DNA of 64,000 nt, from positions 5,636 through 69,635 of the forward strand of contig JAAXHG010000117.1 of the NCBI GenBank assembly GCA_012270995.1, given 5' to 3'. The notes below the pieces were generated by a model. That model searched no databases. It saw only the letters and a program-made list of their open reading frames with translations, and was not told where the DNA came from. The position numbers and the translations under genes were made by a program. Below, in pieces: positions 21,570 to 38,726 of the stretch. The stretch comes from Vicinamibacteraceae bacterium (GTDB taxonomy: Bacteria; Acidobacteriota; Thermoanaerobaculia; Multivoradales; Multivoraceae). Position 1 is the stretch's first letter; each line of letters begins with the position of its first letter.

Positions 21570-22019
21570 TCAGCCGTGCCGGAGCGCCCAGTCGTAGGGG
21601 ATCCGGTCGCTGAACGGATCGAGCCGCTCCATCTCGTCCGGATCGTGCGGCTCGGTGGCGGCGTTCGCCATGATGACCTGCTTGTCGCCGTACGCCTTGT
21701 AGCCGTTGGCGATCCCGGGCGGGATCTGGACCAGTACGTAGTTGTCCTCGCCGAAGAAGACCTCCTGGAGCTCGCCGTGGGTCGGCGAGTCCTCGCGCAG
21801 GTCGTACATCACGAGCTTGGCCCGGCCGCTGATCACCGCGTTGTTGACCGTCATCGACCGGTGAATGTGCCAGGCCTTGATCGTCCCCGGCCAGGCTGTC
21901 GAGAAGTAGATCTCGCCGAAGCCGAGGAAGTGCTCGTCCGTGGCCGTGAGCATGTGCATGATCTTGCCCCGCTCGTCGACGATCTGACGAAGCGGAACCA
22001 CCTTGACGCCGTGGATCAT
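21570..22019 (-). CDS. RmlC-like cupin, sugar-nucleotide 3,5-epimerase-related
   Basis: 149 aa, ..[33 protein letters not shown].. The ATGA overlaps the upstream SDR gene. Confidence 0.7.
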
Positions 22020-23101: not shown

Positions 23102-24387
23102 CGTTCCACGCCTTCCGCCGCGGCAGCCGATGCCGCCGGGGCCGCGTCGCCGGGGCCTCTGGCCGCGGCGCCTTCCGCTGCCCACCCGGCGGCGGATGAT
23201 CCGAGGAGCCGCGCCGTGTGTGCGAGCAACGGCTCTTCGTCGGTCACCAGGCCGAAGGGGCAGCCCGCCGCGGCCGCCGCCTGGCCGTCGCGCTCGTCGT
23301 CGCCCAGGAACGTCGTCCGCGTCAGATCGAGATGATGGTCGCGCTGGGCCTGAAAGAGCATCCCCGGCGCCGGCTTGCGGCAGGAACAGCCCTCGTCCCA
23401 GCCGTGGGGACAGAAGTAGATGCGGTCGATCCGCCCGCCCGCGTCCTCGGCCTCGCCGCACAGGCGTCGATGCACCGCCGCCAGGTCGTCCAGCGTCATC
23501 CGACCACGGGCGACTCCCGGTTGGTTCGACACGACGAGCACCCGCCAACCAGCCCGGTTGAAGGCCGCGAGCGCGTCGCGAGCGCCCGGCAGCCAGCGCA
23601 GGTCCTCCGGCCGACAGACGTACTCCGCCCGCGGCGGTCGCTCGTTGAGCACCCCGTCGCGGTCGAGGATGATCGTCGGCGAACGGGCGAAGAACGCCTC
23701 GGTCAGCGGCAACCGCTCGTGGCCGCCGACGCTGTAGTAGCGGTGCTCGCTCCAGTAGGCGTGGAGTTCGCCCCGGGCGGTCAGGGCCGGATAGACCGCC
23801 TCCTCGAACAGTAACTGGCGATCCGGCAAGAGAGGCAACACCACCGACTTCTCGAGGATCGCGTAGCTGATCTCGACGCCGCTGAGCCCTGGCGTCGTCC
23901 GACCGCGATCGAAGACGGTGACGAAGCCGTCGTCGCCCACGATCACGCTGTCCCGCGTGTAGCCGTCCCGGTTCCCGTAGACGGTGATCTGGGCCGCCGC
24001 CCCGGAGTCGACGTAGGCGCGCCACATCCGGTCGAACCGCATCGGCCAGTAGTTGTCGCAGTAGAGGAGCAGGAACATGTCGTCCAGTTCGTCGGCTGCG
24101 TCCTTGACCCGGTGCGCCGTCAGGTCATCCGGGGCCGTCACCCGGTGGCTGATCCCGACACCGTAGGCCGAGCCGTCGCCGAAGTGGTCGATCATCGCGT
24201 CCGCTCGATAGCCGAGCAGCAACAGGACGCGCTCGAAGCCCTGCTCGCGCAGCATGTCGATCACGTGGCCAAGGAACGGCTTGCCGTGGAACGGAATCAA
24301 CGCCTTGGGCAGCGTGTCCGTCAGCGGCGCCAGGCGGGCGCCCCGGCCGCCGGCCAGGATCACGGCCTGGGTAGGTTTAGCCCGCAT
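23098..24387 (-). CDS. bifunctional sugar-1-phosphate nucleotidyltransferase (HddC-like) / D,D-heptose 1,7-bisphosphate phosphatase (GmhB-like)
   Basis: N-terminus [27 protein letters not shown]-terminal HAD motifs [30 protein letters not shown] and FLGDDERD. Confidence 0.85.
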
Positions 24388-24608
24388 GTTTCACCGACGT
24401 CCTACTGCGGGCGCGGATCCGCTCGCCGTAGCGCGACGTTCTCCCTCACGTCGCCTCGACGTAGTGTCCGCTACGCCTGCGGCGCCTCTCAGTCCGAGCG
24501 CCGCACTACAGCGGCGCCTCCGCGCCCTCGCTACGGACGTCGATAAAACACGCGGGCTTAAGTGCATTGTTGGCTCGATCGTCGGCGCGCAAGCGAGACT
24601 ACTCCGTT

Positions 24609-27092
24609 TCAGTTGCGAACGCGCTTGCCGCCAGGGTCGTACATGGGTCTGAGGGAAGCCTCGGCCGGGACGCGAACGCCCGCGACCTCGATCTCGAAGC
24701 CACCGGGCAGTTTGGGGAAGTCCGGCAACAGCGACATGGGGACGTAGCCGAGACCGATGGCCGCTCCGAGGCTGTGGCCATAGTTCCCGGAAGTGACGTA
24801 GCCCGCGATTTTGTCCCCGAGCCAGATCGGTTCGTAGTGGTAGAGCAGCGGCCGCGGATCCCGGAGCCTGAACTGGACCAGGCGCTTCGCGATGCCGCTC
24901 TCCTTCTGCCTGAGCAACGCCTCGCGGCCGATGAAGCCACCGGGCTTGTCGAGCCTGAGGGCGAACCCGAGGCCGGCTTCGAGCGGCGAGTCCTGATCGG
25001 TGATGTCGTGGCCCCAGTGGCGGTAAGCCTTCTCGATGCGCAGCGAGTCCAGGGCGTGGTAGCCGGCGTGCACGAGGTCGAAGGCCTCGCCGGCAGCCAC
25101 GATCTCGTCGTAGACGCCGACCACGAACTCCGTCGGAACGTAGAGCTCCCAGCCGAGTTCGCCGACATAGGTGATGCGCGATGCCCGCACCAGACCGTAG
25201 CCCAGTTCGATCTCGCGGCTGGTCGCGAACGGGAACGCCTCGTTGGCCAGGTTCGCAGGCGTCAGGGACTGGAGGAGAGCGCGGGAAGTCGGCCCCATCA
25301 GGGAGATCACGCCCATCGCCGAGGTCACGTTCGTGAGCATGCAGTGCGCATCGCCCGGAATGTGGCCCCTGAGCCAGCGAAAGTCCCGCACCTCGGAAGT
25401 GGCGGCGGTGACGATGAGGAAACTGTCTTCCGCCAGGCGCGTCACCGTGAGATCCGCCTCGATGCCGCCGCGCTCGTTGAGCCACTGGGTGTAGACGATG
25501 CGGCCGGGCGGCACATCGACGTCGTTGGCGCAGACCCGGCTGAGCACCCTGGCCGCATCCCGGCCTTCCAGGCGGAACTTCGCGAACGACGACTGGTCGA
25601 ACAGTCCGACGTTCTCGCGCACGGCTCGATGTTCGGCGGCCGAGTACTCGAACCAGTTCTGGCGTCCGTAGCTGTACTCGTAGCGGGCCGGCACGCCCTT
25701 CGGCGCGTACCAGTTCGGCCGCTCCCAGCCGGCGAGTTCCCCGTGGCAGGCGCCAGCGGCCTCCAGGCGGTCGTACAGGGGTGACCGGCGCACGCCCCTC
25801 GCCGTCTCGAACTGGCGATACGGGTAGTGCATGGCGTAGAGGAGCCCCAGGCTCTCGGAGACCCGCTCGCGCAGGTACCTGCGGTTGCCCTGGAAGGGCA
25901 TGTTGCGGCGCACGTCGACTTCCCAGAGGTCGGCCGGCGGATGCCCTTCGAGGATCCACTCGGAAACGACCTTGCCGATCCCGCCCGCGGACTGGATTCC
26001 GATCGAGTTCAGGCCGGCCGCGACGAAGCAGTTCTCGCACTCGGGCACCGGCCCGACGTGGTAGCGGACGTCCGGCGTGAAGCTCTCCGGGCCGCAGAAA
26101 AGCTGCAGAACCTCGGCCGACTCAAGAGCCGGCATCCGCTCCCTGGCGCCGCGCAGCAACGGCTCGAAGTGTTCGCGGTCGGCGGCGATTTCGTCGAAGC
26201 AGAAGTCCTCGGGGATGCCGTCCATGCCCCAGGGCCGCGCGTTCGGCTCGAAAACGCCGACGATCAGCTTGCCCGCGTCGTACCTGAAGTACGAGATGGC
26301 ATCGTAGTCCCGCACGACAGGCAGGCTCGCGTCGAGTCCCTCGACGCCGTCGAAACGGACGTAGTAGTGCTCGCAGGCATGCAGCGGGACGTTGACGCCG
26401 ATGGAGGCGGCCAGCTCTCGGGTCCACATGCCGGCGCAGAGGACGACGCAGTCGGCATCGATGTCCCCCTGCTCCGTGGCGACGCCGACGGCACGCCCCC
26501 CGACGGTGCGAACGGCGGTCACCGGCGCCTGCTCGACGATCCGGGCGCCTGCGGCTCGGGCGCCCGCGGCCAGCGCCAGGGTGATTTCGGTCGGGTTCGC
26601 GTAGCCGTCGCCGGGGATGTGCAGTCCGCCGAGCAGGTCGGACGTCTCGAGCAGCGGGACGCGTTCCCCGATCGTCTTCGCCGTCACCACGTCGACCGGC
26701 AGCCCGAGCACCTTCGCCAGCGAAGCGGCGCGCTTGAACTCCTCGAACCGCTCCGGGTCGGCGGTGACCGAGAAGGAGCCGCAGCGGCGATAGCCCGTCG
26801 ACTGTCCCGTCTCCTGCTCGAGGCGGGCGTAGAGCTCGCTCGTGTAGCGGGCGAGGCTCGTCATCGTGGCCGACTGGCGCAGTTGGCCGAGCAGGCCGGC
26901 GGCATGCCAGGTCGTGCCGGAAGTGATCTGGCGGCGTTCGAGCAGGAGCACATCGAACTCTCCCGAGCGCGCCAGGTGGTAGGCGACCGAACAACCGATC
27001 ACGCCTCCGCCGACGACGATCACGCCAACGCGGCGCGGCAACTCCGGTTCCGCTGCAGGGCCCGCAGGGCCTGGCTCGACGGTCGGAGTCAT
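24609..27092 (-). CDS. FAD-dependent dimethylglycine/sarcosine dehydrogenase-like oxidoreductase with GcvT (aminomethyltransferase) domain
   Basis: 827 aa, with FAD motif VIVVGGGVIGCSVAYHLA and a C-terminal folate-binding GcvT-like region. Confidence 0.9.
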   Translation of the reverse strand: MTPTVEPGPAGPAAEPELPRRVGVIVVGGGVIGCSVAYHLARSGEFDVLLLERRQITSGTTWHAAGLLGQLRQSATMTSLARYTSELYARLEQETGQSTGYRRCGSFSVTADPERFEEFKRAASLAKVLGLPVDVVTAKTIGERVPLLETSDLLGGLHIPGDGYANPTEITLALAAGARAAGARIVEQAPVTAVRTVGGRAVGVATEQGDIDADCVVLCAGMWTRELAASIGVNVPLHACEHYYVRFDGVEGLDASLPVVRDYDAISYFRYDAGKLIVGVFEPNARPWGMDGIPEDFCFDEIAADREHFEPLLRGARERMPALESAEVLQLFCGPESFTPDVRYHVGPVPECENCFVAAGLNSIGIQSAGGIGKVVSEWILEGHPPADLWEVDVRRNMPFQGNRRYLRERVSESLGLLYAMHYPYRQFETARGVRRSPLYDRLEAAGACHGELAGWERPNWYAPKGVPARYEYSYGRQNWFEYSAAEHRAVRENVGLFDQSSFAKFRLEGRDAARVLSRVCANDVDVPPGRIVYTQWLNERGGIEADLTVTRLAEDSFLIVTAATSEVRDFRWLRGHIPGDAHCMLTNVTSAMGVISLMGPTSRALLQSLTPANLANEAFPFATSREIELGYGLVRASRITYVGELGWELYVPTEFVVGVYDEIVAAGEAFDLVHAGYHALDSLRIEKAYRHWGHDITDQDSPLEAGLGFALRLDKPGGFIGREALLRQKESGIAKRLVQFRLRDPRPLLYHYEPIWLGDKIAGYVTSGNYGHSLGAAIGLGYVPMSLLPDFPKLPGGFEIEVAGVRVPAEASLRPMYDPGGKRVRN

Positions 27093-27208
27093 AGTCGCGC
27101 GGAGGACTCTAGCGGTCGAGCCAGTGCCAGGCAGCGCTGGACCGCGGACAACCCGGAGCGTTACGCTTGACGTAAGGCGGAAGGGCCACTAGCCTCCGAG
27201 CGGTTCGG

Positions 27209-27682
27209 ATGATTCGGAATCGGATGGTGCCGGTGCATCCGGGCGAAGTGCTTCGGGAGGAACTCGACAGCATCGGTCTGTCGGCCAGCGAGATGGCTCG
27301 GGCGATCGACGTTCCCGTCCATCGGGTCACGTCCATCCTCAACGGCAATCGCGGCGTCACCGCCGATACGGCGCTCAGGCTCGGCCGTTACTTCGGCACC
27401 AGCGAACGCCTCTGGCTCAACCTCCAGCAGACCTGGGAGATCCGTCGGGCGGAGATCGACACCGGAGCGCACATCCTCGAACGGGTGGTCTCTCGGGAAA
27501 CCGAAGCGCTCCGCGAAGCGGCCGGAGCAGCGAGTAGAGCGCTGAACGTCTCCACCCAGGCCGCCGCCTCGCTCAGGGCGCTCGAACAGAACACCGCGCT
27601 TTGCGATCAACTGAACGGCATCGAGCGGTCGCTGCGGGAGCTTGGCGCCAACAACCCCGGGGCGCCTGGCGCCAGGTTCTGA
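27209..27682 (+). CDS. higA: HigA-family XRE-type HTH protein (antitoxin-like; possible R-M controller)
   Basis: MIRNRMVPVHPGEVLREELDSIGLSASEMARAIDVPVHRVTSILNGNRGVTADTALRLGRYFGTSERLWLNLQ plus an extra C-terminal tail of about 70 aa. No higB is adjacent. Confidence 0.8.
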   Translation: MIRNRMVPVHPGEVLREELDSIGLSASEMARAIDVPVHRVTSILNGNRGVTADTALRLGRYFGTSERLWLNLQQTWEIRRAEIDTGAHILERVVSRETEALREAAGAASRALNVSTQAAASLRALEQNTALCDQLNGIERSLRELGANNPGAPGARF

Positions 27683-27712
27683 CGATCATCTCCGGCTAAG
27701 CTCCAAGCGGCC

Positions 27713-30700
27713 ATGAAAGACGCCACGACCTTCCACCGCTCCCCCATCCTCAACTCGCCCTACGAACTGCCGGGGCGACACTGGGTGCTGGACGAAAGCG
27801 GTCAGCCGACGGAGAGAATCGGCGAGGGCCGTCGCCCGGTGTCCTTCGTCTCGCCCATTCCCAGGGCGAGAAAGACCGGGCGCAAGGCGCAACGGCGGCT
27901 CACCCTGGACGAAGACATCGAGGCGCTCGAGACGCCAGATGGTCAGCAGTACGAACTGACGGAACTCATCGGCGGGCTGCGCCGGGAGATTGCCGCCTGG
28001 CGCACGCTGCCGGAGTCGCAATGGCGCGTGACGCCCGAAACCGCGCGCCTGCTCAAGCACTGGCGCCACCACCGGTTCAGCGGCATCCGCCCGTTCTTCT
28101 GCCAGGTGGAAGCCGTCGAGACCGCCATCTGGCTGACCGAAGTCGCGCCCGCCGTCGGCAAGCGTGGGCGTCGCTTCCTGGACCGGATCCAGGCGGCCAG
28201 CGAGCAGGCGAACCCGGGACTCTCGCGCATGGCGCTCAAGCTCGCCACCGGCGCCGGAAAGACCACCGTCATGGCCATGCTCATCGCGTGGCAGACGGTG
28301 AACGCCGTTCGCCGCCCCGCCAGCCGGCGATTCACGCGCGGCTTTCTCGTCGTCGCGCCGGGCATCACCATCCGCGACCGCCTGCGGGTGCTCCAGCCGA
28401 ACGACCCCGACAGCTACTACGCCAGCCGCGAACTCGCGCCGCCGGACATGCTGCGCGAAATCGACAAGGCGAAGATCGTCATCACGAACTACCACGCCTT
28501 CGGGCGGCGGGAGACGATGAAGCTGGCCAGGGGCAACCGCGCCCTGCTCCAGGGTCGCGGCCCGGAGCTCGCGACCCGCGAGACGGAAGGCGAGATGCTG
28601 GCCCGCGTGATGCCGGAACTGATGACCATGAAGGGCGTCCTCGTCCTGAACGACGAGGCCCACCACTGCTATCGCGAGAAGGCCGGGGAAGACGAAGAAG
28701 GCAAGCTGAAGGGCGATGATCGCCTTGAGGCGAAGCGCAACCAGGAGGCGGCGCGCGTGTGGATCTCCGGCCTCGAGGCGGCCCAACGCAAACTGGGCCT
28801 GAGGAGGGTCATCGACCTCTCGGCCACGCCGTTCTTCCTGCGCGGCTCCGGCTACGCCGAGGGCACGCTCTTTCCGTGGACCGTCAGCGACTTCTCCCTG
28901 ATGGACGCGATCGAGTGCGGCATCGTCAAGCTCCCGCGCGTGCCGGTGGTCGACAACGTCCCCGGCGCCGAGATGCCGATGTATCGGAACCTGTGGGAGC
29001 ACGTCGGCAACAAGATGCCGAAGAAGGGCCGGGGCAGCGGGGCGCCGCCCGACCCGATGTCGCTGCCGACCGTGCTGCAAAGCGCTCTGGAGGCCCTCTA
29101 CGGCCACTACGACAAGACCTTTCTCCTCTGGGAGGAATCCGGCATCGACGTACCGCCCTGCTTCATCGTCGTGTGCAACAACACGGCCACGTCGAAGCTC
29201 GTCTACGACTACGTCGCGGGCTTCCACCGCGCGTCCGGAAACGGCACGGGGGGAACCGGGACCTTCCACAACGGTCGCCTGCCGCTGTTTCGCAACTTCG
29301 ACGCGGCCGGAATGCCGCTGGCCAGGCCCCGCACGTTGCTCATCGACAGCCACCAGCTCGAATCCGGCGACGCGCTCGACAGGAGCTTCCGCGCGGCCGC
29401 CGCGGACGAGATCGACCGCTTTCGCCGGGAGATCGTCGAACGCACCGGCGACCGCCAGCAAGCCGAGAAGCTGACGGACCAGGACCTGCTGCGCGAGGTG
29501 ATGAACACGGTCGGCAAGGCCGGCCGGCTGGGCGGCGACATCCGGTGCGTCGTCTCCGTCGCCATGCTGACCGAAGGTTGGGACGCCAGCAACGTCACTC
29601 ATGTCCTCGGTCTGCGGGCTTTCGGGACGCAACTTCTCTGCGAACAGGTGATCGGCCGCTCCCTGCGCCGGCAGTCCTACGAGCTCAACGACGGCGGCCT
29701 CTTCGACGTCGAGTACGCGGACGTCTTCGGCGTGCCCTTCGACTTCACCGCCAGGCCCGTCGTGGCGCCGCCGCAGCCGCCCGCCGAAACCGTGCAGGTC
29801 AAGGCGCTCTCGCCGGAACGAGACGACGCGGAGATCCGATTCCCGCGAGTCGCCGGCTACCGCGTCGAACTGCCGAACGACCGCCTCCTCGCCTCATTCA
29901 CGGAGGACTCCCTGCTCGAGCTCACGCCGGAGCTCGTGGGCCCGACGATCGTGCACGACCAGGGCATCATCGGCGAGGGCCACGATCTCACGCCCGAGCG
30001 GCTGGACGACGTCCGCCGGTCCACGGTGCTCTACGAACTGACCAGGCGGCTGCTCTTCAAGCACTGGCGCGACGCGAACGAGGAGCCGAAACTGCACCTC
30101 TTCGGCCAGTTGAAAGGCATCACCGACACCTGGCTCAGGGACTGCCTCAGGTGCAAGGGAGGCACCTTCCCCGCCCAACTGATGATGGCCGAGCTCGCCG
30201 ACCGCGCCTGCGAGAAGATCGCGTCCGCCGTCACCCGCGCGCAGCTGCACCATCAGCCGGTCAAGGCGCTGCTCGATCCCTACAACCCGATCGGCACGAC
30301 CCGCGGCGTGAACTTCACTACCTCGCGCACCCAACGCTACGCGACCGGGCGGCGAAGCCACCTGAACTGGGCAATCCTCGACAGCACGTGGGAAGGCGAG
30401 TTCTGCCGCGTTCTCGACTCGCACCCCCAAGTCCTCGCCTGGGTGAAGAACCGCGGCCTCGGCTTCGACGTGCCGTACCGGTTCGGCGGCGCCGCCCACC
30501 GCTACGTGCCCGACTTCATCGCGATTCTCGATTATGGCCTCGGCGAAGACGAGCCCCTGCACGTCGTGGTGGAGGTCAAGGGCATGCGCGGGGAGGACGC
30601 GAAGGCGAAGAAAGAAGCCATGGACTCCTACTGGCTGCCCGCGGTCAACGCGCTTGGACGCCACGGCCGATGGGCGTTCCTGGAACTTGGGGATCCGCAC

Positions 30701-30859
30701 GAAATGCAGAGCGACTTCGACCAATCGGTCGGCGACGCGTTGAAGGCGCTCGCCAAAGAAGAGCGGATGAAGGAGGCCATTGCCGGATTGATCGCGATGG
30801 GCGGTTCCGATCCGAACGCCGAGTACATCCCAAGGCGCCGCAGCGCGGAAGCAGGATGA
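27713..30859 (+). CDS. res: type III-like restriction enzyme Res subunit (SF2 helicase + PD-(D/E)xK nuclease)
   Basis: Motifs LATGAGKTT, LNDEAHHCY, DLSATPFF and MLTEGWDASNVTHVLGLR. Nuclease module YVPDFIAIL...VVVEVKGMRGED. Confidence 0.9.
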   Translation: MKDATTFHRSPILNSPYELPGRHWVLDESGQPTERIGEGRRPVSFVSPIPRARKTGRKAQRRLTLDEDIEALETPDGQQYELTELIGGLRREIAAWRTLPESQWRVTPETARLLKHWRHHRFSGIRPFFCQVEAVETAIWLTEVAPAVGKRGRRFLDRIQAASEQANPGLSRMALKLATGAGKTTVMAMLIAWQTVNAVRRPASRRFTRGFLVVAPGITIRDRLRVLQPNDPDSYYASRELAPPDMLREIDKAKIVITNYHAFGRRETMKLARGNRALLQGRGPELATRETEGEMLARVMPELMTMKGVLVLNDEAHHCYREKAGEDEEGKLKGDDRLEAKRNQEAARVWISGLEAAQRKLGLRRVIDLSATPFFLRGSGYAEGTLFPWTVSDFSLMDAIECGIVKLPRVPVVDNVPGAEMPMYRNLWEHVGNKMPKKGRGSGAPPDPMSLPTVLQSALEALYGHYDKTFLLWEESGIDVPPCFIVVCNNTATSKLVYDYVAGFHRASGNGTGGTGTFHNGRLPLFRNFDAAGMPLARPRTLLIDSHQLESGDALDRSFRAAAADEIDRFRREIVERTGDRQQAEKLTDQDLLREVMNTVGKAGRLGGDIRCVVSVAMLTEGWDASNVTHVLGLRAFGTQLLCEQVIGRSLRRQSYELNDGGLFDVEYADVFGVPFDFTARPVVAPPQPPAETVQVKALSPERDDAEIRFPRVAGYRVELPNDRLLASFTEDSLLELTPELVGPTIVHDQGIIGEGHDLTPERLDDVRRSTVLYELTRRLLFKHWRDANEEPKLHLFGQLKGITDTWLRDCLRCKGGTFPAQLMMAELADRACEKIASAVTRAQLHHQPVKALLDPYNPIGTTRGVNFTTSRTQRYATGRRSHLNWAILDSTWEGEFCRVLDSHPQVLAWVKNRGLGFDVPYRFGGAAHRYVPDFIAILDYGLGEDEPLHVVVEVKGMRGEDAKAKKEAMDSYWLPAVNALGRHGRWAFLELGDPHEMQSDFDQSVGDALKALAKEERMKEAIAGLIAMGGSDPNAEYIPRRRSAEAG

Positions 30860-31236
30860 TCCTGGTGGATACATCAGTCTGGATCGACCACCTTCACCGG
30901 CCGATCCCGGCGCTCAACGCGCAGCTCGCAGAACGCAACGTCCTGTGCCACGAAATGGTGATCGGAGAACTCGCGCTGGGTAATCTGCAGGCCCGCGACA
31001 GCGCGCTTCACGACCTGAAGGCTCTTCCCCAGGCCGAAGCACTCGCGGGAAAGGAAGTGCTCGAGTTGATTGAAGAACGGAAACTCACGGGGCGAGGCAT
31101 CGGCTACGTGGACGCCAACCTCCTCGGCGCCGTGCTGGCGGACGGCAACGCGACCCTGTGGACGACCGACCGGAAACTGCGGCGGCTCGCGGCGGAACTC
31201 GGCATCGTCCACGTCCCTGACCCGGAGGACCGTTAG
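30856..31236 (+). CDS. vapC: PIN-domain protein (VapC-like) embedded between res and mod
   Basis: ATG 30856 overlaps the res stop (ATGA). MILVDTSVWIDHLHRP... is 126 aa and ends 4 nt before the mod ATG. Confidence 0.85.
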   Translation: MILVDTSVWIDHLHRPIPALNAQLAERNVLCHEMVIGELALGNLQARDSALHDLKALPQAEALAGKEVLELIEERKLTGRGIGYVDANLLGAVLADGNATLWTTDRKLRRLAAELGIVHVPDPEDR

Positions 31237-31240
31237 CCCG

Positions 31241-34141
31241 ATGGCCAGGAAGACCAGGAAGGTCGAGACGCTGATCCACCGCGAAGCGTCGCGCCGCAAC
31301 ATTCCCACCGCCGAGTACCAGCCGGTGATGCACGCGTACGACCGGGACCCGATCCGCGTCGCCTACGAGCGGCGCAACCCGGACCTCGATCCGCAACTGG
31401 TCTGGCGCGGCAAGGACATGCGGGACTGGTCCGAGCTCGTCGTACCCGCGCCGCCGCTCTTCATCCAGGAGAAGATGCACCCCAAGGTGCTGATCGACGA
31501 CCTGGCCCGCGTGAGCCGCCAGGCGCGCGAACGGGAAGCCGGCGACCAGACCGTCCAACCCGATCTCTTCGGCGACTTCAACGGCCTCCCGGACGGCGAC
31601 GCCAGGACCGAGTTCTACCGACACGACGCCAACTGGTCGAACCGCATGATTCTCGGCGATTCCCTGCAGGTCATGGCGTCGCTCGCCGAACGGGAAGGCC
31701 TGCGCGGCAAGGTGCAGTGCATCTACATCGACCCGCCCTACGGCATCAAGTTCAACTCGAACTTCCAGTGGTCGACGACGAGCCGGGACGTCAAGGACGG
31801 CAAGGCGGACCACATCACGCGGGAACCGGAACAGGTCAAGGCGTTCCGGGATACCTGGCGGGACGGCATCCACTCGTACCTGACGTATCTGCGGGATCGC
31901 TTGACCGCGGCCCGCGATCTGCTCACCGAGAGCGGGTCGGTGTTCGTGCAGATCGGCGACGAGAACGTGCACCGGGTGCGGGCGGTGATGGACGAGGTCT
32001 TTGGGGCGGAGAACTTCGTCTCGCAGATCTATTTCGCGAAGACGACGGGGTTCGTGGGCCAGTACTTGGCGAACGTCGCCGACTACGTTCTTTGGTACGC
32101 ACGGGACCGGGCCTCTGGCAAGTACCGGCCGCTCTGGCGGAAGAAAGTCGCTGGCACCGAGGGGGCAGCCGGATACAAGACTTGGGAGTCGTACCGAACG
32201 CTGACGAACTATCCGTTCTCGCCGTCGCGCCTTGCGACGTTATCTGATCTAACGTCGCAAGGCGCGACGGCGAAGGACGGTGACGTGTTCGTCTGCGGGA
32301 GGTCGTTTCTTCCGCTCCCGGGATTGCACTGGAAGACGACATCTTCGGGTCTCAGGCGACTCGGTGCTGCGAGTCGAATAGCTGCGGAGGGAAGAACACC
32401 GGGGTACGTACGGTTCATGGACGACTTCGCGGTAACGCCCTTTGTCAATCGCTGGACGGACACGGTAGGACAGAACCAGTTCGGCGGTAGCAAGACCTAT
32501 GTCGTCCAGACCGCACTTCCAGTAGTACAGCGCTGCCTCCTCATGACCACCGACCCCGGCGACCTCGTCCTCGACCCGACCTGCGGCTCCGGTACGACCG
32601 CCTACGTCGCCGAGCAGTGGGGACGGCGCTGGATCACGATCGACACCTCCCGCGTCGCGCTCGCTCTCGCTCGCGCCCGGATCATGGGCGCCCGCTACCC
32701 GTACTACCTGCTCGCCGACAGCCGCGAGGGCCAACTCAAGGAAGCCGCGATTGCCCGCAAGGCTCCTTCGGAAGCGCCGACGTACGACGACATTCGCCAC
32801 GGCTTCGTGTACGAGCGTGTCCCCCACATCACGCTCAAGCTGATCGCCAACAACGCCGAGATCGACGTGATCCACGAGCGGATGCAGCCGGACGTCGAAG
32901 CCGCGCTCAGCGACCTCAATCGCGCCTTGCGGGATCACGCCGTGCCGTTCACCGTCGGGACCGGCGGACGCAGGGGCAAGGAGATCGACTTCGGCGCCCC
33001 GCCGGGAAGCACGGTCGATCTTCCGTCGGGCGAGTCGGCGCCCGCCAACGGCCTGCTCGAATGGGAAGTGCCCCGGGAGCCGGAGAACGACTGGAACGAG
33101 GCCGCTCGCGAAGCCCACGAGCGCTTCTGGCGGGCCCGGATCGCCCGCCAGCGAGAGATAGACGCCTGCATCGCCGCGAGCGCCGAGTACGAGCACCTCT
33201 ACGACAAGCCGTACCAGGACAACAGGAAGGTCCGCGTCGCCGGCCCCTTCACCGTCGAGAGCGTCTCGCCGCATCGCCTGGCCGCCCTGGACGAGCACGA
33301 TGAGCTCCTCGTCGCCGAGCCCCGCGCGCGCTACGACCCGGGCGCCGACGTGTCGCGCCACGAGTTCGCCCACGTGATTCTCGAGAACCTCCGCACCGCC
33401 GGGGTTCAGCAGGCCAGGAAGGCTGGCCGGATCGCCTTCTCGTCGCTTGAGCCGTGGCCCGGCGAGCTCGTCTGCGCCGAGGGCCGCTACCTGGACGGCG
33501 ACGGCAAGGAGCGGAGCGCCGGCGTCTTCATCGGTCCGGAGTTCGGCACCGTCTCCCGCCCGGACCTGGTGAGCGCCACCCGCGAGGCCGCCGACGCCGG
33601 CTTCGACGTCCTGATCGCCTGCGCCTTCAACTTCGAAGCGCACGCCGCCGAGTTCACGAAGCTCGGCCGCGTCCCCGTGCTCAAGGCCCGCATGAACGCC
33701 GACCTGCACATGGCCGACGACCTCAGGAAGACAGACACGGCCAACCTCTTCGTGATCTTCGGCGAGCCCGACATCGACATCGAACCCGCCGCCGGCGGCA
33801 ACGGCGAGCCGGACTGGCTCCGGGTCAGGATCAAGGGCGTCGACGTCTTCGACCCATCCGCCGGCGAAGTCCGCAGCGACGGTCCCGAAGGCATCGCCTG
33901 CTGGTTCGTGGACACCGACTACAACGAAGAGAGCTTCTTCGTCCGCCAGGCCTACTTCCTCGGCGCCGGGGACCCCTACAAGTCCCTCAGAACCACCTTG
34001 AAGGCGGAAATCGACTCCGAAGCCTGGGCTACCCTGCGGAGCGACACCTCCCGCCCCTTCCCGAAACCCACCACCGGCCGCATCGCCGTCAAGGTCATCA
34101 ACCACCTCGGCGACGAAGTGATGAAGGTATTCGGGGTCTGA
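31241..34141 (+). CDS. mod: DNA methyltransferase (beta-class N6A/N4C; Mod subunit) with long C-terminal extension
   Basis: Motif IV IYIDPPYGIKFNSNF, then motif I LVLDPTCGSGTTAYVAEQWGRRWITID. Start is ATG 31241 (MARKTRKVETLIHREASRRNIP). Confidence 0.9.
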   Translation: MARKTRKVETLIHREASRRNIPTAEYQPVMHAYDRDPIRVAYERRNPDLDPQLVWRGKDMRDWSELVVPAPPLFIQEKMHPKVLIDDLARVSRQAREREAGDQTVQPDLFGDFNGLPDGDARTEFYRHDANWSNRMILGDSLQVMASLAEREGLRGKVQCIYIDPPYGIKFNSNFQWSTTSRDVKDGKADHITREPEQVKAFRDTWRDGIHSYLTYLRDRLTAARDLLTESGSVFVQIGDENVHRVRAVMDEVFGAENFVSQIYFAKTTGFVGQYLANVADYVLWYARDRASGKYRPLWRKKVAGTEGAAGYKTWESYRTLTNYPFSPSRLATLSDLTSQGATAKDGDVFVCGRSFLPLPGLHWKTTSSGLRRLGAASRIAAEGRTPGYVRFMDDFAVTPFVNRWTDTVGQNQFGGSKTYVVQTALPVVQRCLLMTTDPGDLVLDPTCGSGTTAYVAEQWGRRWITIDTSRVALALARARIMGARYPYYLLADSREGQLKEAAIARKAPSEAPTYDDIRHGFVYERVPHITLKLIANNAEIDVIHERMQPDVEAALSDLNRALRDHAVPFTVGTGGRRGKEIDFGAPPGSTVDLPSGESAPANGLLEWEVPREPENDWNEAAREAHERFWRARIARQREIDACIAASAEYEHLYDKPYQDNRKVRVAGPFTVESVSPHRLAALDEHDELLVAEPRARYDPGADVSRHEFAHVILENLRTAGVQQARKAGRIAFSSLEPWPGELVCAEGRYLDGDGKERSAGVFIGPEFGTVSRPDLVSATREAADAGFDVLIACAFNFEAHAAEFTKLGRVPVLKARMNADLHMADDLRKTDTANLFVIFGEPDIDIEPAAGGNGEPDWLRVRIKGVDVFDPSAGEVRSDGPEGIACWFVDTDYNEESFFVRQAYFLGAGDPYKSLRTTLKAEIDSEAWATLRSDTSRPFPKPTTGRIAVKVINHLGDEVMKVFGV

Positions 34142-34294
34142 ATCGACCGCGCCTCGACCTCGGTGCGGCTGGTCTCGCGGAAGCGCTTCAGCCACTCGCC
34201 GGCGCCCGGTCGAGGACAGTCCTGAGTGGGAGGTCCGTGAACCGTTCGTCCATGCGGATCAGAAGGTCAGCCGCACGCGTTCGGGGGCCCGGCC

Positions 34295-34552
34295 TCAGCC
34301 GAGCAGCCGGAACAGCACGGCGACCACCAGGCTGGCGGTTCCAACAGTGAACCCGCCCACCACCAGCACGATGCGCCAGGTGAGCTGGTCGCAAAGGTCC
34401 GCCAGTTCCGCTCGAAGGTGCTCTCGCTCGACGAGGCCCGCGACGGCCGCCGCGCAGACGTCCCGCAGCGCCGCAACGCGGTCGCCAGACTCCGCTACAG
34501 GGCCGCCCGAGAGACGAGCCACAACCCCAGCATCACCACTCCACAGAACCAC
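34295..34552 (-). CDS. small DUF1640-like protein with C-terminal TM helix
   Basis: ..REHLRAELADLCDQLTWRIVLVVGGFTVGTASLVVAVLFRLLG parallels 35038..35283. Start uncertain. Confidence 0.4.
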   Translation of the reverse strand: MVLWSGDAGVVARLSGGPVAESGDRVAALRDVCAAAVAGLVEREHLRAELADLCDQLTWRIVLVVGGFTVGTASLVVAVLFRLLG

Positions 34553-34771
34553 AGAATGAACAAGAGCCGTGAGGCTTTGCGGATCGCAGGAGCAAACAAC
34601 CAGTTCGGCAGGGACACCTCTGGTTCCGGTTCGTTCGGCGAATGGAAGTGACCCTCATCAACCACTGCTCCGGCGCACGGCAAATCCAAGAGTTTGCATG
34701 AGTACGCCTTCTCTGCGTTCGGTCTCCGGATACCGGAACCGGAGCCGCACCGTCTGCTAGGGTTCGCAGGC

Positions 34772-35041
34772 ATGGAGAACGTCGAGGCCGCGAACCAGCG
34801 TACCGCAAAGCTGTAACAGCGACGGGATCAACTCACCGCCCGACTGCAACGGCTCCAGCAGGCCGAGAAGACGAAGCAGAGGAAGCTCAGGACCCGGCGG
34901 CTCATCCTCATGGGAACGATGATGGAAACGCGGGTGAAGGACGACCCGGACTACCGGGAAAGAGTCCGGACCGCGCTCGACGGATTCCTCGTGAAGGATC
35001 CCGACCGGAAACTCTTCGACCTGCCGGGAGACCGGACATGA
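34772..35041 (+). pseudogene. TraD/MobC-like small conjugation-accessory gene with in-frame TAA
   Basis: Manual translation gives MENVEAANQRTAKL*QRRDQLTARLQRLQQAEKTKQRKLRTRRLILMGTMMETRVKDDPDYRERVRTALDGFLVKDPDRKLFDLPGDRT*. The TAA is at 34814-34816, and the stop overlaps the next ATG (ATGA). Confidence 0.45.
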
Positions 35042-35283
35042 CCCCGACCGACACGCTGCGCACGGCCGAGATCCTGCGCGAGGCCGGGGTCCCGGAGCGG
35101 CAGGCCGCAGCCACCGCGAGAGCGATCGACCTCGCGGTCGCGGAGTCCCGCGGCGATCTGGCGACGCGGGCCGACCTAGCGGAGATGGAGACCCGGCTGA
35201 CCCGAACGCTGTACCGCGCCCTGCTGATCCAGACCGGCGTGATCGCCGGGATCGTGATCGCCCTGCTCCGACTGCTGCCGTAA
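35038..35283 (+). CDS. DUF1640-family small membrane-anchored protein
   Basis: 81 aa, MTPTDTLRTAEILREAGVPERQAAATARAIDLAV...ETRLTRTLYRALLIQTGVIAGIVIALLRLLP. Confidence 0.7.
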   Translation: MTPTDTLRTAEILREAGVPERQAAATARAIDLAVAESRGDLATRADLAEMETRLTRTLYRALLIQTGVIAGIVIALLRLLP

Positions 35284-35332
35284 CGGCCGGCAGACCCGCT
35301 TCGGTGGGTGGAGAGCCCCTCCGGTTCCCTCA

Positions 35333-35810
35333 GTAGTAGCAGGCCTTGAACGGGGCCTGCTCGATCAGACGGTCGAGGAAGCGCTTGGCGGAGGCGGCGG
35401 TGGCTCGACTGACGGCCATGCCGAATCCCCACCTCGAACAGCGGTCAACGGCAGTCAACTGCTTGATTGTGCGGTTGCTGGGGAACCAGATCGAGAAGAG
35501 TGTCGACTTGCACTGCGTCGCCCGGTCTGTTGGCCTTGAGATCTCCTCGGAGGCGCGTGACCCGCCTCGTCCGCCGCTGGCGCCGCTGGCGCGCCGCGGC
35601 GGTAAAGCACGTGACGGGCCGGGCGCGCCCGCAAGCCACCAGGTGGGCCAGGATGCGGCCTACGGTCGCGTCCGAGATGTACCATCGGGCAGCTGTCCGC
35701 GCGTGCGGGATGGCGAAGCAGGTGACCGATTCTGCGCGAAACCGGCTGAAACGCACCTTCTCGAAGGCGAAGAACGGCTCGAAACGGCGACGCGGCGCGC
35801 TACAGGAGAG
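35333..35810 (-). mobile_element. truncated, frameshifted DDE (rve-type) transposase remnant
   Basis: ..ISDATVGRILAHLVACGRARPV...KANRPGDAVQVDTL.., then a frame change to KQLTAVDRCSRWGFGMAVSRATAASAKRFLDRLIEQAPFK and a premature end. The catalytic core is missing. GC is locally lower. Confidence 0.6.
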
Positions 35811-35849
35811 ATAAGACCCGCCAAGCCAGCCATAGCGACAGACTATCCC

Positions 35850-36170
35850 CATCGCGCTCTTGCAGGCTGCTTTCCGCGCTGATTCCTTTATCAGCAGCAT
35901 CTCGTAGGGAGTCGGCAAGTTGACGATGGTGTTCCCCATGTCCGACGGCCCGATGCCGGCACCGCCGGCATGAATGTCCCAGCCGTAGCCGCCCGGCGAG
36001 TAGAGCCATGACTTGGGGAACTTGTATGCCTCCCCTTTGATGATGAGCGTCTCTTCGCACTCGTTTCAGTCATGCACCTCTTCCGCCGCGACCAGCCTCG
36101 GTGCGCCGCCGATCAGTACGAAGAACAGCGCGCCCAACAGCGCGCCGCGAGACCAACTCTGTGTCCTCAT
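35850..36170 (-). pseudogene. signal-peptide ORF with in-frame TGA (U-x-x-C candidate, or nonsense mutation); its 3' end runs into the IS remnant
   Basis: MRTQSWSRGALLGALFFVLIGGAPRLVAAEEVHD-TGA(36068..36066)-NECEETLIIKGEAYKFPKSWLYSPGGYGWDIHAGGAGIGPSDMGNTIVNLPTPYEMLLIKE... GGAGGG RBS lies before ATG 36170. Third-position GC stays high after the TGA. Confidence 0.4.
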
Positions 36171-36171
36171 T

Positions 36172-36205
36172 GGAGGCCCTCCGGTTATGGAGGCCCTCCG
36201 GTTAT
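36172..36205. repeat. perfect 17-bp tandem duplication (GGAGGCCCTCCGGTTAT x2)
   Basis: Units at 36172-36188 and 36189-36205. The duplication lies in the divergent intergenic region between the signal-peptide ORF and the sulfatase-fold gene. Each unit contains the GGAGG-C-CCTCC mini-palindrome. Confidence 0.9.
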
Positions 36206-36273
36206 GGATGTGCCGTAGGCTAGCCTCATTCCGCCGCCGAATCGTCCACTAGCCGTTCGCCTCTATCCGTGCC

Positions 36274-37689
36274 ATGCGCCGCTCAGCCCTGCTCGCGACT
36301 TGCGCCCTCGCCTTGGCTTGCACCGCCGCACGCACGCCGGACCCACCGCGGCGCGTCTTCCTGATCACGGTCGACACGCTGCGCGCCGATCATCTGGGCT
36401 GGCATGGCTACCCCCGGGACACGAGTCCGCGGCTGGACGAATGGGTCGAGCGGGGAGTCGTCTTCGAGAGGGCGATCGTCCAGTGGCCGAAGACCGGACC
36501 GTCCTTCGCCTCGATGTTCACCAGCCTCTACCCGCACACGACGGGTTTGATCAACACGGCCGCGCAGACGATCCCCGACGACTACCTCGCGCTGCCGGCC
36601 TGGTTCCAGGAACGTGGCTTCACGACCGCGGCCGTGATCTCCAACCCGGTGCTGAGCCGGGAACTCGGCTGGGGCCGCGGCTTCGACCGCTACGAGCAGA
36701 CCTGGGTCGACCAGGCGACGCTCGACGCCGTCGACGAACTCCCGCTGGAGCAGCGGCCGATGGCGTTCCGGCGTCACGTGTGGGCCGACCGCGTGAACGA
36801 ACTCGCCCGGCCGTTGCTCGCCTCGCTGGCCTCCGAGGAGCGGCTGTTCGTCTGGCTGCACTACACCGACCCGCACGCCCCCTACCTGCTCCAGCCAGGA
36901 ACCGGAAACCCGTTCATCGACGACGAGCACTACACGAGCAACGAGCTCGTCGACCTCACCGGCGCGGAGGGGCGAGCGCTCGGCGATCAGCGGGAACTCC
37001 GCTACTACGTCGCCCAGTACGACGCGAATGTGTGGGTCACGGATCGCGCGATCGGCGCCATCCTGGACGAGATCGCCGCCCTCGGCATGGAGAACGGGAG
37101 CCTGCTCGTGCTGACCTCCGACCACGGCGAGGAGCTGAACGAGCACGGGGTGCCTTTCGAACACGGTCCGGTACCCTACAACAGCAGCGTCCACGTGCCG
37201 CTGGTCCTCGTCGGCGATCCCTGGGCCGACGCCCGCCGGCGCGTCGAGCAGCCGGTCGAGTTGATCGGGCTCTTTCCCACCTTGATCGAGTTGATGGGAG
37301 AACCGATGCCCGAGGGCTTCGAGGGCCGGAGCTGGGCGCCTTTGTTGCGGGAACAGCCCCAAGCCGACGAAGCCGAAACCGGCGCCGTTGCGGATCCAAC
37401 CGCCTTCGCCGACGCCGGCGCCTACCAGCGTCACCTGCGGAGCATTCAGGACGGCGAGTGGCAGCTCGTCCTGCGTCCGCCGAACCGGGACCGCGAGAAG
37501 CCGACGATCGAGCTCTATCACCTGCCGTCCGACCCGCTGCAACAAAGAGACGTGGCCTCCGAGTTCCCCGAGGTCAAGGACCGCCTGGGACGTCAGCTCA
37601 GCAGGTGGATCCGCGATTCGCCGCAGAACGTCACGCCGCACACCGAGGCCGCGCGCAAGGCGCTCGAGGCGATGGGCTACCTGGAGTGA
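36274..37689 (+). CDS. sulfatase-fold (alkaline phosphatase superfamily) protein, secreted or lipoprotein
   Basis: MRRSALLATCALALACTAA.., then FLITVDTLRADHLGWHGY... The nucleophile region reads QWPKTGPSFASMFTS rather than C/S-x-P-x-R. Confidence 0.85.
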   Translation: MRRSALLATCALALACTAARTPDPPRRVFLITVDTLRADHLGWHGYPRDTSPRLDEWVERGVVFERAIVQWPKTGPSFASMFTSLYPHTTGLINTAAQTIPDDYLALPAWFQERGFTTAAVISNPVLSRELGWGRGFDRYEQTWVDQATLDAVDELPLEQRPMAFRRHVWADRVNELARPLLASLASEERLFVWLHYTDPHAPYLLQPGTGNPFIDDEHYTSNELVDLTGAEGRALGDQRELRYYVAQYDANVWVTDRAIGAILDEIAALGMENGSLLVLTSDHGEELNEHGVPFEHGPVPYNSSVHVPLVLVGDPWADARRRVEQPVELIGLFPTLIELMGEPMPEGFEGRSWAPLLREQPQADEAETGAVADPTAFADAGAYQRHLRSIQDGEWQLVLRPPNRDREKPTIELYHLPSDPLQQRDVASEFPEVKDRLGRQLSRWIRDSPQNVTPHTEAARKALEAMGYLE

Positions 37690-37725
37690 CGGAGTCGCCT
37701 CCGCTTGCACCGAACGCGGGCCAGC

Positions 37726-38694
37726 ATGCCCGCGTTCCCGGGATCCGAGAGTGATGTCCGCCCCCCGCGCCCCGGAAGCGCCGACTTCGGGACGCTCCCA
37801 GTGACGGAGCCTCCGCCGTTCGCGATCGAGCGGGTCAGCGTCATCATCCCCTGCCTGAACGCTGCCGCGACTCTCGGCGCGCAGCTCGAAGCGCTCAGCC
37901 GGCAGACCTGGCGGGGCGAGATCGAGGTACTGGTCGCGGACAACGGCTCGACCGACGGCTCGGTCGAGCTTGCCGAGTCCTGGCGCGACCGGCTGCCCGG
38001 CCTGCGCGTCCTGCACGCCGCCGGCCGGAAGGGACCGGCGCACGCCAGAAACGTCGCCGCGGCGGCGGCCAACGGCGACGTCCTCCTGTTCTGCGACGCC
38101 GACGACGAAGTCGCCGAGGGCTGGATCGCCGGCCTCGTACCCGAGCTGGAGCGCCACGAGGCGGCGGCGAGCCGCCACGAGATCGAGCGCCTGAACGGCG
38201 AGCAGGCCCGACGGTTGCACGGCGACGCCGCACAGCAGCACGGGTTGCCCGCCTACACGAACCCGCCCTTCCTCGATCACGCCGGCGGCTGCGGCCTCGG
38301 TGTCCGGCGCCACGTCTTCGAAGAACTCGGCGGTTTCGACGAGGAGTACGTCGCGCTGGAGGACACCGATCTGTGCTGGCGCCTGCAGCTCGCGGGCCGC
38401 CGCCTCGTGTTCGCTCCCGAGGCGGTCGTCCACGTGCGGTTCCCGGCAACCCTCGCGGACGCCTTCCGCCAGGCGGCCCAGTACGGGCGGTACAACGTGT
38501 ACATCTACACGCGGTACCGATCGCGCGGCATGCCGCGGCTTCCCGCACTGCCGGGGCTGCTGCGACTCGGCTCGCTGCTGCTGCGGAGTCCACAACTCCT
38601 GTCCAGATCGGCTCGGGGTCGGTGGATCTGGCTCGCCGGCTGGCGACTGGGGCGACTGCGGGGCTGCCTCCGCTACCGTACGCTTGCGCTCTAA
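37726..38694 (+). CDS. family 2 glycosyltransferase
   Basis: VSVIIPCLNAAATL...VADNGSTDGS...LFCDADDE. Candidate starts are TTG 37705, ATG 37726 and GTG 37801. Confidence 0.85.
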   Translation: MPAFPGSESDVRPPRPGSADFGTLPVTEPPPFAIERVSVIIPCLNAAATLGAQLEALSRQTWRGEIEVLVADNGSTDGSVELAESWRDRLPGLRVLHAAGRKGPAHARNVAAAAANGDVLLFCDADDEVAEGWIAGLVPELERHEAAASRHEIERLNGEQARRLHGDAAQQHGLPAYTNPPFLDHAGGCGLGVRRHVFEELGGFDEEYVALEDTDLCWRLQLAGRRLVFAPEAVVHVRFPATLADAFRQAAQYGRYNVYIYTRYRSRGMPRLPALPGLLRLGSLLLRSPQLLSRSARGRWIWLAGWRLGRLRGCLRYRTLAL

Positions 38695-38726
38695 GCTGGC
38701 TGGAGAGCTTGAGCAGGAGGAAACAG

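Follow-up and report, generated by a model that had tools for sequence, protein, structure and literature searches.

What restrains a PIN-domain nuclease whose gene lies between the two genes of a restriction-modification (R-M) pair, with no antitoxin gene beside it? The question is raised by a locus in a 64,000-nt stretch of an acidobacterial genome (contig JAAXHG010000117.1; the whole stretch is called the window here, and coordinates are positions within it). There, a type III-like endonuclease gene (res), a PIN open reading frame (ORF) and a methyltransferase gene (mod) are packed end to end. A preliminary description of this DNA had concluded that a separate antitoxin gene has no room in this array, and we found no such ORF at the res-PIN-mod locus. 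The locus is an R-M operon of the BPTD_3080 family with a vapBC toxin-antitoxin (TA) cassette in its res-mod junction, the antitoxin remnant (vapB') being fused to Res, and we consider it likely that the toxin, VapC, is restrained by Res. The parts of the unit, under the names that follow from this reading, are these:

27713..30859 (stop codon included), + strand: res, BPTD_3080-family type III-like endonuclease with a VapB-derived C-terminal tail, 1048 aa (NF046055, PF04851 ResIII)
30728..30856, + strand: Res extension beyond the family model, residues 1006-1048 (43 aa); the NF046055 model ends at residue 1005
30758..30856, + strand: VapB-derived segment, Res residues 1016-1048 (EERMKEAIAGLIAMGGSDPNAEYIPRRRSAEAG) (hhalign, BLASTP, tail profile)
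30847-30851, + strand: purine-rich Shine-Dalgarno-like GGAAG ahead of the vapC start (sequence; retained in most relatives)
30856..30859, + strand: ATGA overlap of res stop and vapC start (sequence; 13/13 intact loci; free vapBC loci L088 and L091)
30856..31236, + strand: vapC, candidate PIN-domain toxin gene, 126 aa (PF01850, predicted fold, conserved acidic residues)
31224..31229, + strand: GGAGGA, Shine-Dalgarno-like site for mod, inside the last vapC codons (sequence; GAGGA/GGAGGA at the same place in L003-L006)
31241..34141, + strand: mod, N6/N4 DNA methyltransferase of the type III-like pair, 966 aa (PF01555, PADLOC MTase_III PDLC03632)

Here and below, L and P numbers denote comparison loci and proteins. 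The TGA of res sits within the ATGA at 30856-30859, which opens the PIN ORF, and the mod ATG (31241) follows the PIN stop after 4 nt. The ORF map and junction sequences bear out the coordinates and packing given in the preliminary description, which had also counted an upstream helix-turn-helix (HTH) gene as part of the array. Profile searches of the kind it proposed placed all four proteins: the HTH protein in TIGR02607, Res in NF046055 and PF04851, the PIN protein in PF01850, and Mod in PF01555 and PDLC03632. The packing of res, PIN and mod is not due to chance, because the same packing, including the 4-nt overlap, is seen in 13/13 intact related loci. A sequencing frameshift was considered as the origin of the fusion and rejected; the identical in-frame fusion is present in >15 independent assemblies.

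The boundary of the tail is set by the family model. Res matched NF046055, 'BPTD_3080 family restriction endonuclease', with 1292 bits (cut-off 800) over residues 9-1005. The alignment spans model positions 2-969 of 970, so residues 1006-1048 lie outside. When 14 tails were compared with 6 free VapBs using hhalign (98.5%, E 3.8e-15), Res residues 1016-1047 aligned with VapB residues 34-64. BLASTP of the Res tail against the VapB of pMOL30 gave 46% identity over 39 aa (E 5e-8, single comparison); the C-terminus of this VapB reads REALKALIQREAAKRLANLGGSQPGIEGVPRRRQDTK and that of the Res tail GDALKALAKEERMKEAIAGLIAMGGSDPNAEYIPRRRSAEAG. When a profile of five tails was run against 5.8 billion proteins, it matched PF09957 VapB antitoxins with a database-wide E of 4.6e-7. 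P0122, one PF09957 VapB found in this way, ends in MGGSDPDAEYIPRRRSAK, the counterpart in the window being MGGSDPNAEYIPRRRSAEAG. The tail consists of a helix, a GGSxP hinge and an IPRRRS motif; across 14 diverse tails, the GG, P and IPRRRS positions vary hardly or not at all.

What the tail lacks is the DNA-binding half of the antitoxin. Residues 2-44 of the free VapB match the ribbon-helix-helix (RHH) domains of Mycobacterium tuberculosis VapB15 and VapB11 in the PDB. This half has no counterpart in Res, the alignment beginning at VapB residue 34, and the Pfam model PF09957, which covers the RHH part, gives no match to the Res tail. Because the tail aligns with VapB 34-64 without an RHH counterpart, 30758-30856 is the toxin-binding C-terminal part of vapB, fused in frame to the 3' end of res, with the RHH part lost. 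In VapBC11, VapB residues 1-40 form the RHH domain and residues 41-63 wrap VapC, a conserved arginine near the C-terminus makes salt bridges with the active-site acids, and VapB11 C-terminal peptides by themselves inhibit the RNase in vitro (PMC6265470). A Gly-X-Pro hinge is conserved among the VapBs related to VapB11 (PMC6265470). The helix, GGSxP hinge and IPRRRS motif of the Res tail correspond to these elements.

We modeled the last 250 residues of Res with AlphaFold2. The nuclease domain was predicted confidently and is followed by a long helix at 998-1028, with a predicted local distance difference test score (pLDDT) of 84-92. Residues 1029-1048 were modeled as coil, with confidence of 74 falling to 59, which would suit a flexible tether. 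Searching PDB sequences with the tail profile gave no meaningful match, and no solved structure has the tail motif. Among cluster representatives, only two fragments were recovered when the 48-aa tail was used in an exhaustive HMMER search; the 50%-identity representatives evidently lack the tail.

The PIN ORF matched PF01850 with an E of 6e-6 (27.3 bits, cut-off 23.6). It scored 23 bits against the NCBIfam VapC equivalog model, below the 80-bit cut-off. Its AlphaFold2 model, built with 34 homologues, had a pLDDT of 94.5, and the best fold matches in the PDB were VapC15 (4CHG) and VapC11 (6A7V). Only the fold search succeeded, a PDB sequence search with the PIN protein giving no match. VapB15 and VapB11, the PDB matches of the free VapB, are the antitoxins of these same two toxins. 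Residues D5, E38, D86 and D105 are invariant in the 34 homologues and represent the putative catalytic residues of a VapC; the acidic positions are kept in 13 locus copies. On plasmids, homologues of at most 52% identity are annotated as VapC and lie behind a ~65-aa 'VapB family antitoxin', and the window protein is 47-48% identical to plasmid genes annotated as VapC that adjoin a VapB. In the free vapBC loci L088 and L091, antitoxin stop and toxin start overlap in the same 4-nt ATGA, an ancestral feature that the window cassette retains. These data, from sequence and predicted fold, indicate that the PIN protein is a VapC.

The GGAAG at 30847-30851, being kept in most relatives, makes independent translation of vapC plausible, so a res nonsense mutant could still make the toxin. 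At the other end of the gene, the 3' third of vapC (31133-31236) keeps ~87-93% nucleotide identity, including in relatives that differ by replacement of the remaining cassette. The GGAGGA within this end lies 11 nt ahead of the mod ATG, and the 3' part of vapC may be constrained by the translation signals of mod.

Do tail and PIN belong together? We scanned one genome per species and obtained 80 Res loci; with the loci of PIN homologues included, res and mod could both be placed in 79. All contigs carrying PIN homologues (87, 74, 71, 64, 57 and 56% identity) encode a tailed Res (1021-1046 aa), the PIN protein and Mod in this order, and their genomic neighborhoods partly differ. This is the survey of co-occurrence that the preliminary description had suggested, and it supports a link. 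Tail and window-type PIN are both present in 14/79 loci (one of them, L019, frameshifted), the tail occurs without the PIN gene in 3/79 (L010, L012 and L057), and PIN without the tail in 0/79 (Fisher p 7e-13, not corrected for phylogeny). The preliminary description held that tails in genomes lacking the PIN gene would speak against an antitoxin role. Such tails exist in the three loci just named, yet PIN is never without a tail. Tail without PIN but never PIN without tail is the asymmetry expected of an antitoxin.

The loci with the order res::tail-PIN-mod are L003-L009, L011, L014, L016, L064, L066, L084, L093 and L094, and the 4-nt overlap of res stop and PIN start holds in every intact one (the 13/13 given above). 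The same tail-PIN junction is present in L092 and L096, both cut by a contig end; in L096 VILVDTS... comes after the tail, and here too the overlap is 4 nt. Further tails were found among Res fragments in the protein collection (P0127-P0132, P0139, P0140, P0145, P0152 and P0219). Judged from record titles, the lineages with tail plus PIN are Thermoanaerobaculia, Pseudomonadales and other Gammaproteobacteria, Spirochaetia, Candidatus Palauibacter and Longimicrobiales. The unit res::vapB'-vapC-mod recurs in further metagenome loci as well and spans at least four bacterial lineages. Of 35 BPTD_3080 Res matches in the plasmid collection, 0 have tail and PIN. An apparent full-length match on Methylibium pT29B was discarded; it ends without the motif, and a large unrelated ORF lies where mod would be expected.

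The fusion has been retained across Res divergence down to ~65% identity. In a rough neighbor-joining tree of the Res core, tail-bearing Res proteins fall at >=4 places. Cargo is commonly overwritten by other cargo, as tail remnants in L015, L032, L034 and L035 show, and for this reason the tree does not give a count of fusions. One of these loci, L034, has the intact L064 as its sister. L034 has a nonsense codon in the tail (AAT*VAAAGESEPQLEYVPRRRSEPSQ*), and its PIN gene is broken off after ~20 residues beside a transposase-like ORF of an insertion sequence (IS). In this locus, tail and PIN decayed together.

Pairwise ratios of nonsynonymous to synonymous substitution rates (dN/dS) were 0.16-0.44 for PIN, 0.10-0.22 for the Res core and 0.17-0.28 for Mod. 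For the tail, ratios of 0.04-0.35 were obtained in 8/10 pairs, the other two being 0.68 and 1.04 with very few substitutions. These values point to purifying selection on PIN, and on the tail in most pairs. Comparison of close relatives revealed a second pattern. Between the window and L006, nucleotide identity is 0.92 in the res core, falls to 0.64 in the tail and 0.60 over PIN residues 1-75, and returns to 0.87 over PIN residues 76-126 and ~90% at the start of mod. Between the window and L003 it is 87-92% throughout the res core, tail and PIN. Because identity to L006 drops across the tail and PIN 1-75 and recovers on either side, these two segments were replaced as one block. Across 15 loci, the partial Mantel correlation between tail and PIN 1-75, given the Res core, is 0.47 (p ~6e-4). 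The suggestion of a tethered antitoxin made in the preliminary description stands in that the tail is homologous to the toxin-binding end of VapB and both co-occurs and co-varies with PIN; as to its neutralising part, homology with the solved VapBC complexes suggests that the Res tail probably neutralises VapC.

How might such a unit work? The C-terminal helix of Res and the flexible GGSDP...IPRRRS peptide would wrap the PIN domain of VapC, an arginine would be inserted into the acidic active site, and the RNase would stay inactive while full-length Res is present. Autoregulation would have gone with the RHH half, leaving a cassette that is expressed from the res transcript; with the DNA-binding half of VapB missing, it should no longer regulate itself. 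The ATGA overlap would keep tail and toxin near 1:1. VapC would become active once Res is lost, truncated by mutation, degraded or sequestered. An intact res would thereby be addictive, the R-M unit would be protected from decay, and growth arrest might serve as a back-up when a phage attacks Res.

Set beside VapBC modules with an RHH-type PF09957 VapB (VapBC11, VapBC15, pMOL30), the window cassette shares the PIN toxin with its acidic residues and VapC15/VapC11-like fold, the C-terminal helix, GGSxP and PRRR motif of the antitoxin, and the 4-nt ATGA overlap. It differs in that there is no free antitoxin gene, the RHH domain for DNA binding and dimerisation is deleted, and the toxin-binding peptide forms the C-terminus of a restriction endonuclease of 1048 aa. 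In addition, the cassette lies inside another operon, with self-repression presumably lost.

Several points weigh against restraint of VapC by Res, or against a benefit of it to the R-M unit. Past the GGSxP hinge, only ~13 residues remain for toxin binding, fewer than in VapB11. Classical TA triggering requires a labile antitoxin, and here the antitoxin peptide sits on a protein of 1048 aa. The co-replacement and co-variation could reflect a single recombination tract, tail and PIN being adjacent. Conservation of the antitoxin is expected of any selfish TA module and is silent on a benefit to R-M. Finally, the cassette is dispensable, being lost, frameshifted or replaced in L010, L012, L015, L019, L034 and L057. 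At the level of the system, the cassette may counter the decay of res, stabilise the unit post-segregationally, provide a PrrC-like backup defence or do no more than persist selfishly.

The surroundings of the cassette within the family bear on these roles. In 20/79 loci mod starts <100 nt past the res stop, mostly after a gap of 0-33 nt, and the other 59/79 hold 0.25-4.3 kb of cargo between res and mod. A local hidden Markov model survey of this cargo found window-type PIN in 15 loci (14 plus the L034 remnant), MNT, HepT and DUF2283 in 8 each, HicB in 7, HicA in 3, and ParE with Unstab_antitox in 3. Cargo confirmed with Pfam includes HicB plus HicA (L010), HepT (L013), DUF2283 (L015), a VapB-like protein plus PIN (L020), and Unstab_antitox plus a ParE-like protein (L021). 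Across L008-L087 the junction (equivalent to 30859-31241 in the window) also holds DUF2283 with an 83-aa partner, other PINs, AAA ATPases and IS elements; Fic-like and PDDEXK-like ORFs occur as well, the calls for many of the larger ORFs having been made by eye alone. In L010 the VapB-like tail is kept and PIN is replaced by HicB and HicA. In L093 PIN and mod are separated by an additional HicB-like gene of 60 aa (4999-5181), with no HicA called.

A tail of another kind was found in two of the loci. In L013 (8994-9685) the Res ORF runs 107 residues further, and these amount to an entire MNT nucleotidyltransferase (PF01909, E 1.5e-17); HepT comes next. P0133/L095 (3073-4639) has an independent Res::MNT-HepT arrangement, the antitoxin being of the MntA type. 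With the VapB tail on one side and Res::MNT in L013 and L095 on the other, fusion of an antitoxin to Res has occurred with two unrelated antitoxin types.

Could the cassette be nothing but a hitch-hiker? On this account, vapBC landed in the hotspot, a deletion fused vapB to res, and loss of the tail became lethal, with no benefit to R-M. Cargo that consists mostly of TA modules plus IS elements is what it would predict, as are the loci in which res abuts mod and the lineages in which the cassette was lost or replaced. Retention of the fusion to ~65% Res identity and at >=4 places in the Res tree fits it less well, as do the fusions with two unrelated antitoxin types. A useless toxin should also decay faster than the dN/dS of PIN indicates, though this argument is weak. 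We regard a purely selfish cassette as a possibility of some weight, if an unlikely one. The preliminary description had allowed that PIN might be a recent selfish insertion. An insertion is supported by the distant members in which res and mod abut; recency is not, the cassette being old enough to have been kept to ~65% Res identity.

A second alternative gives the toxin a role in defence. The tail would dock VapC as a latent RNase that is released when a phage anti-restriction factor inhibits Res or, in a variant, when Res changes conformation at unmodified DNA, so that restriction and abortive infection form a two-layer defence. The model for this is PrrC in the type Ic system EcoprrI (hsdMSR), the closest functional analogue, in which EcoprrI holds PrrC inactive until the Stp peptide of phage T4 intervenes (bioRxiv 10.1101/2024.01.29.577857). 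In both, an RNase toxin gene is nested in an R-M operon, embedding of this kind being a known pattern (bioRxiv 10.1101/2024.01.29.577857). Silencing by physical association with an R-M protein is known for PrrC and proposed here. The differences are considerable. PrrC combines an ABC-ATPase with an anticodon nuclease, whereas the window toxin is a 126-aa single PIN domain. EcoprrI is a type I system rather than type III-like and has no recognisable antitoxin module fused to an Hsd subunit. Its trigger, T4 Stp, is known, whereas none is known for res::vapB'-vapC-mod. In favor of such a guard are also the conserved PIN active site, under purifying selection, the retention of the architecture in several lineages, and the MNT antitoxin fused to the Res C-terminus with HepT downstream. 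The many ordinary unfused TA pairs at the same junction, for which hitch-hiking fits equally, and the repeated loss of the cassette speak against it, as does the lack of evidence for a trigger. It also extends the tethered-antitoxin mechanism and does not replace it. We judge a guard of this type unlikely.

A broader idea joins the two fusions. The Res C-terminus would repeatedly capture antitoxins (a truncated VapB here, a whole MntA in L013 and L095), making VapC or HepT a sensor of Res integrity or activity that fires upon Res truncation, degradation or phage anti-restriction. This would be a built-in effector of abortive infection and anti-decay, reaching PrrC-like logic by another route. 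We put it forward tentatively, as a proposal with less than one chance in four of being right.

The remaining alternatives look to the tail as a relic or to the upstream HTH gene, which requires a view of that gene:

27209..27682, + strand: HigA-type HTH gene, 157 aa (TIGR02607); neighboring remnant outside the conserved unit

The HTH protein scored 87.3 bits against the HigA model TIGR02607 (cut-off 47.7), and the gene ends 30 nt ahead of the res ATG (27713) on the same strand. No HigB was found in the window by tblastn (E > 0.5), which agrees with its absence as noted in the preliminary description. The window shares synteny with L006 and L007, in all of which an FAD-oxidoreductase/GCV_T gene lies upstream and a sulfatase gene downstream. 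At the HTH position, L006 and L007 have a HigB toxin (PF05015, E 7e-15) and a 487-aa HTH-HEPN_Swt1 protein. A HigA fused to a Swt1-like HEPN RNase domain beside HigB is itself an unusual module. By BLASTN, the window is without L006 1022-1315 (higB, 294 nt) and L006 1763-2817 (HEPN, 1055 nt). The flanks of both deletions are 88-94% identical between window and L006, and the window HTH starts with the first higB codons (MIR...). L003 lacks an HTH gene altogether, and other neighbors take its place in L004 and L005. The window HTH (27093-27712 versus L006 713-2953) is thus a two-deletion remnant of a HigB-HigA::HEPN_Swt1 module, a decaying neighbor of the R-M unit.

Might the tail be an inert relic, with VapC neutralised by a mini-antitoxin from an internal start, by the upstream HTH protein or by an antitoxin elsewhere in the genome? 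The window tail does contain an in-frame ATG at Res M1019 (EERMKEA), and the HTH is of the HigA antitoxin type. M1019 is not conserved, L004, L005 and L006 having E, R and A there, and an internal start yielding a free mini-antitoxin was rejected on this ground. The HTH gene is missing from L003, L004 and L005, and in the window it is the product of deletions. The near-invariant GG, P and IPRRRS positions, the low dN/dS of the tail in most pairs and the lack of any PIN without a tail also argue for a functional tail, and we find an inert one very improbable. That the HTH protein is a C-protein-like transcriptional controller of a four-gene composite, as suggested by its place 30 nt upstream of res and as the preliminary description allowed in counting a fourth cistron with a possible controlling role, is contradicted by the comparative data and can be given almost no credence, since the gene is not conserved with the unit and the window copy has lost the higB and HEPN parts held by L006 and L007. 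Unlike C-protein-controlled R-M systems, window-type R-M genes have no HTH controller conserved upstream.

As to the R-M pair itself, Res matches PF04851 (ResIII), and Walker A (ATGAGKT), DEAH and P933-D934...E954-V955-K956 are invariant in a five-sequence alignment, indicating a type III-like architecture of superfamily 2 (SF2) helicase plus PD-(D/E)xK nuclease. Against the curated type III endonuclease model NF012027, it scored 15.2 bits (cut-off 564). The closest named relative of Res is from Candidatus Multivorans thiocomprendens (Thermoanaerobaculia, Acidobacteriota), with 93% identity over a partial match, an affiliation in keeping with the GC content of the window (64-72%). Mod matches PF01555 (E 7e-30) and PADLOC MTase_III PDLC03632 (1321 bits). 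One part of it is variable:

32030..32530, + strand: variable block in mod, residues ~265-430, presumed target-recognition domain (identity drop versus L003 and L006)

Mod residues ~265-430 are 30-45% identical to L003 and L006, versus 85-100% in the remaining Mod, and this block is probably the target-recognition domain. If so, the window, L003 and L006 would methylate and restrict different sequences. Like the classical type III systems EcoP1I and EcoP15I, the pair has a Mod in which an N6/N4 methyltransferase domain is accompanied by a central variable block, and a Res that combines SF2 helicase motifs with a C-terminal PD-(D/E)xK nuclease; relatives carry the JGI name 'type III restriction enzyme'. 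The pair differs from EcoP1I and EcoP15I in that res precedes mod, Mod has ~970 aa, and Res belongs to the separate BPTD_3080 family. The order res-mod, which the preliminary description had singled out as a reversal, is no oddity here, being the rule in 79/79 family loci.

The R-M unit is found at the same place in several relatives (L003, L006 and L092), in a sugar-nucleotide/glycosyltransferase neighborhood. In the window (22000-27092; 36274-38700), NTP-transferase and epimerase genes flank it on one side, and sulfatase and glycosyltransferase genes on the opposite side. The window and L006 carry the FAD-oxidoreductase/GCV_T gene and the HTH module, both of which L003 lacks. No convincing gene was seen in the 2.1 kb from mod to the sulfatase gene at 36274-37689 (34142-36273). 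Past mod, L003 has a 378-aa ORF without a Pfam match and L006 a 230-aa ORF on the minus strand, neither of which matches the window by tblastn. A scan of 26900-34600 gave zero sigma-70 promoter sites and fewer terminator-like sites than expected, results of little weight for an acidobacterial genome of 68% GC.

VapBC modules, type III-like R-M and genes embedded in defence operons are all known. Embedded defence genes were surveyed in Hma, BREX, DISARM and type I R-M (Payne et al., bioRxiv 10.1101/2024.01.29.577857). Shared with those systems are the extra genes nested between core defence genes and a junction that serves as a variable cargo site. That survey did not cover the BPTD_3080 type III-like family, in which the cargo is mostly TA and the antitoxin is fused to the core Res in two cargo classes. 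In the literature searched, no description of the res::vapB'-vapC-mod architecture was found, and none for 'BPTD_3080'; the preliminary description, too, knew of no described res-PIN-mod architecture. What appears new is an antitoxin cut down to its inhibitory peptide and translationally fused to a restriction endonuclease, together with a TA hotspot at the res-mod junction of the family.

TA and R-M systems are both addiction or defence elements and are usually treated as separate neighbors in defence islands. Here the two are physically merged, the antitoxin peptide being part of the restriction enzyme. If the tail neutralises VapC, a nonsense or frameshift mutation in res would unleash the RNase, blocking the usual course of R-M decay in which res is lost and mod kept. 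A phage that destroys or sequesters Res could likewise set off growth arrest. The tail would then also be a natural antitoxin reduced to an inhibitory peptide of ~33 residues, relevant to the design of VapC peptide inhibitors. For the BPTD_3080 family as a whole, the res-mod junction is a newly recognised hotspot that can be mined for TA and defence genes.

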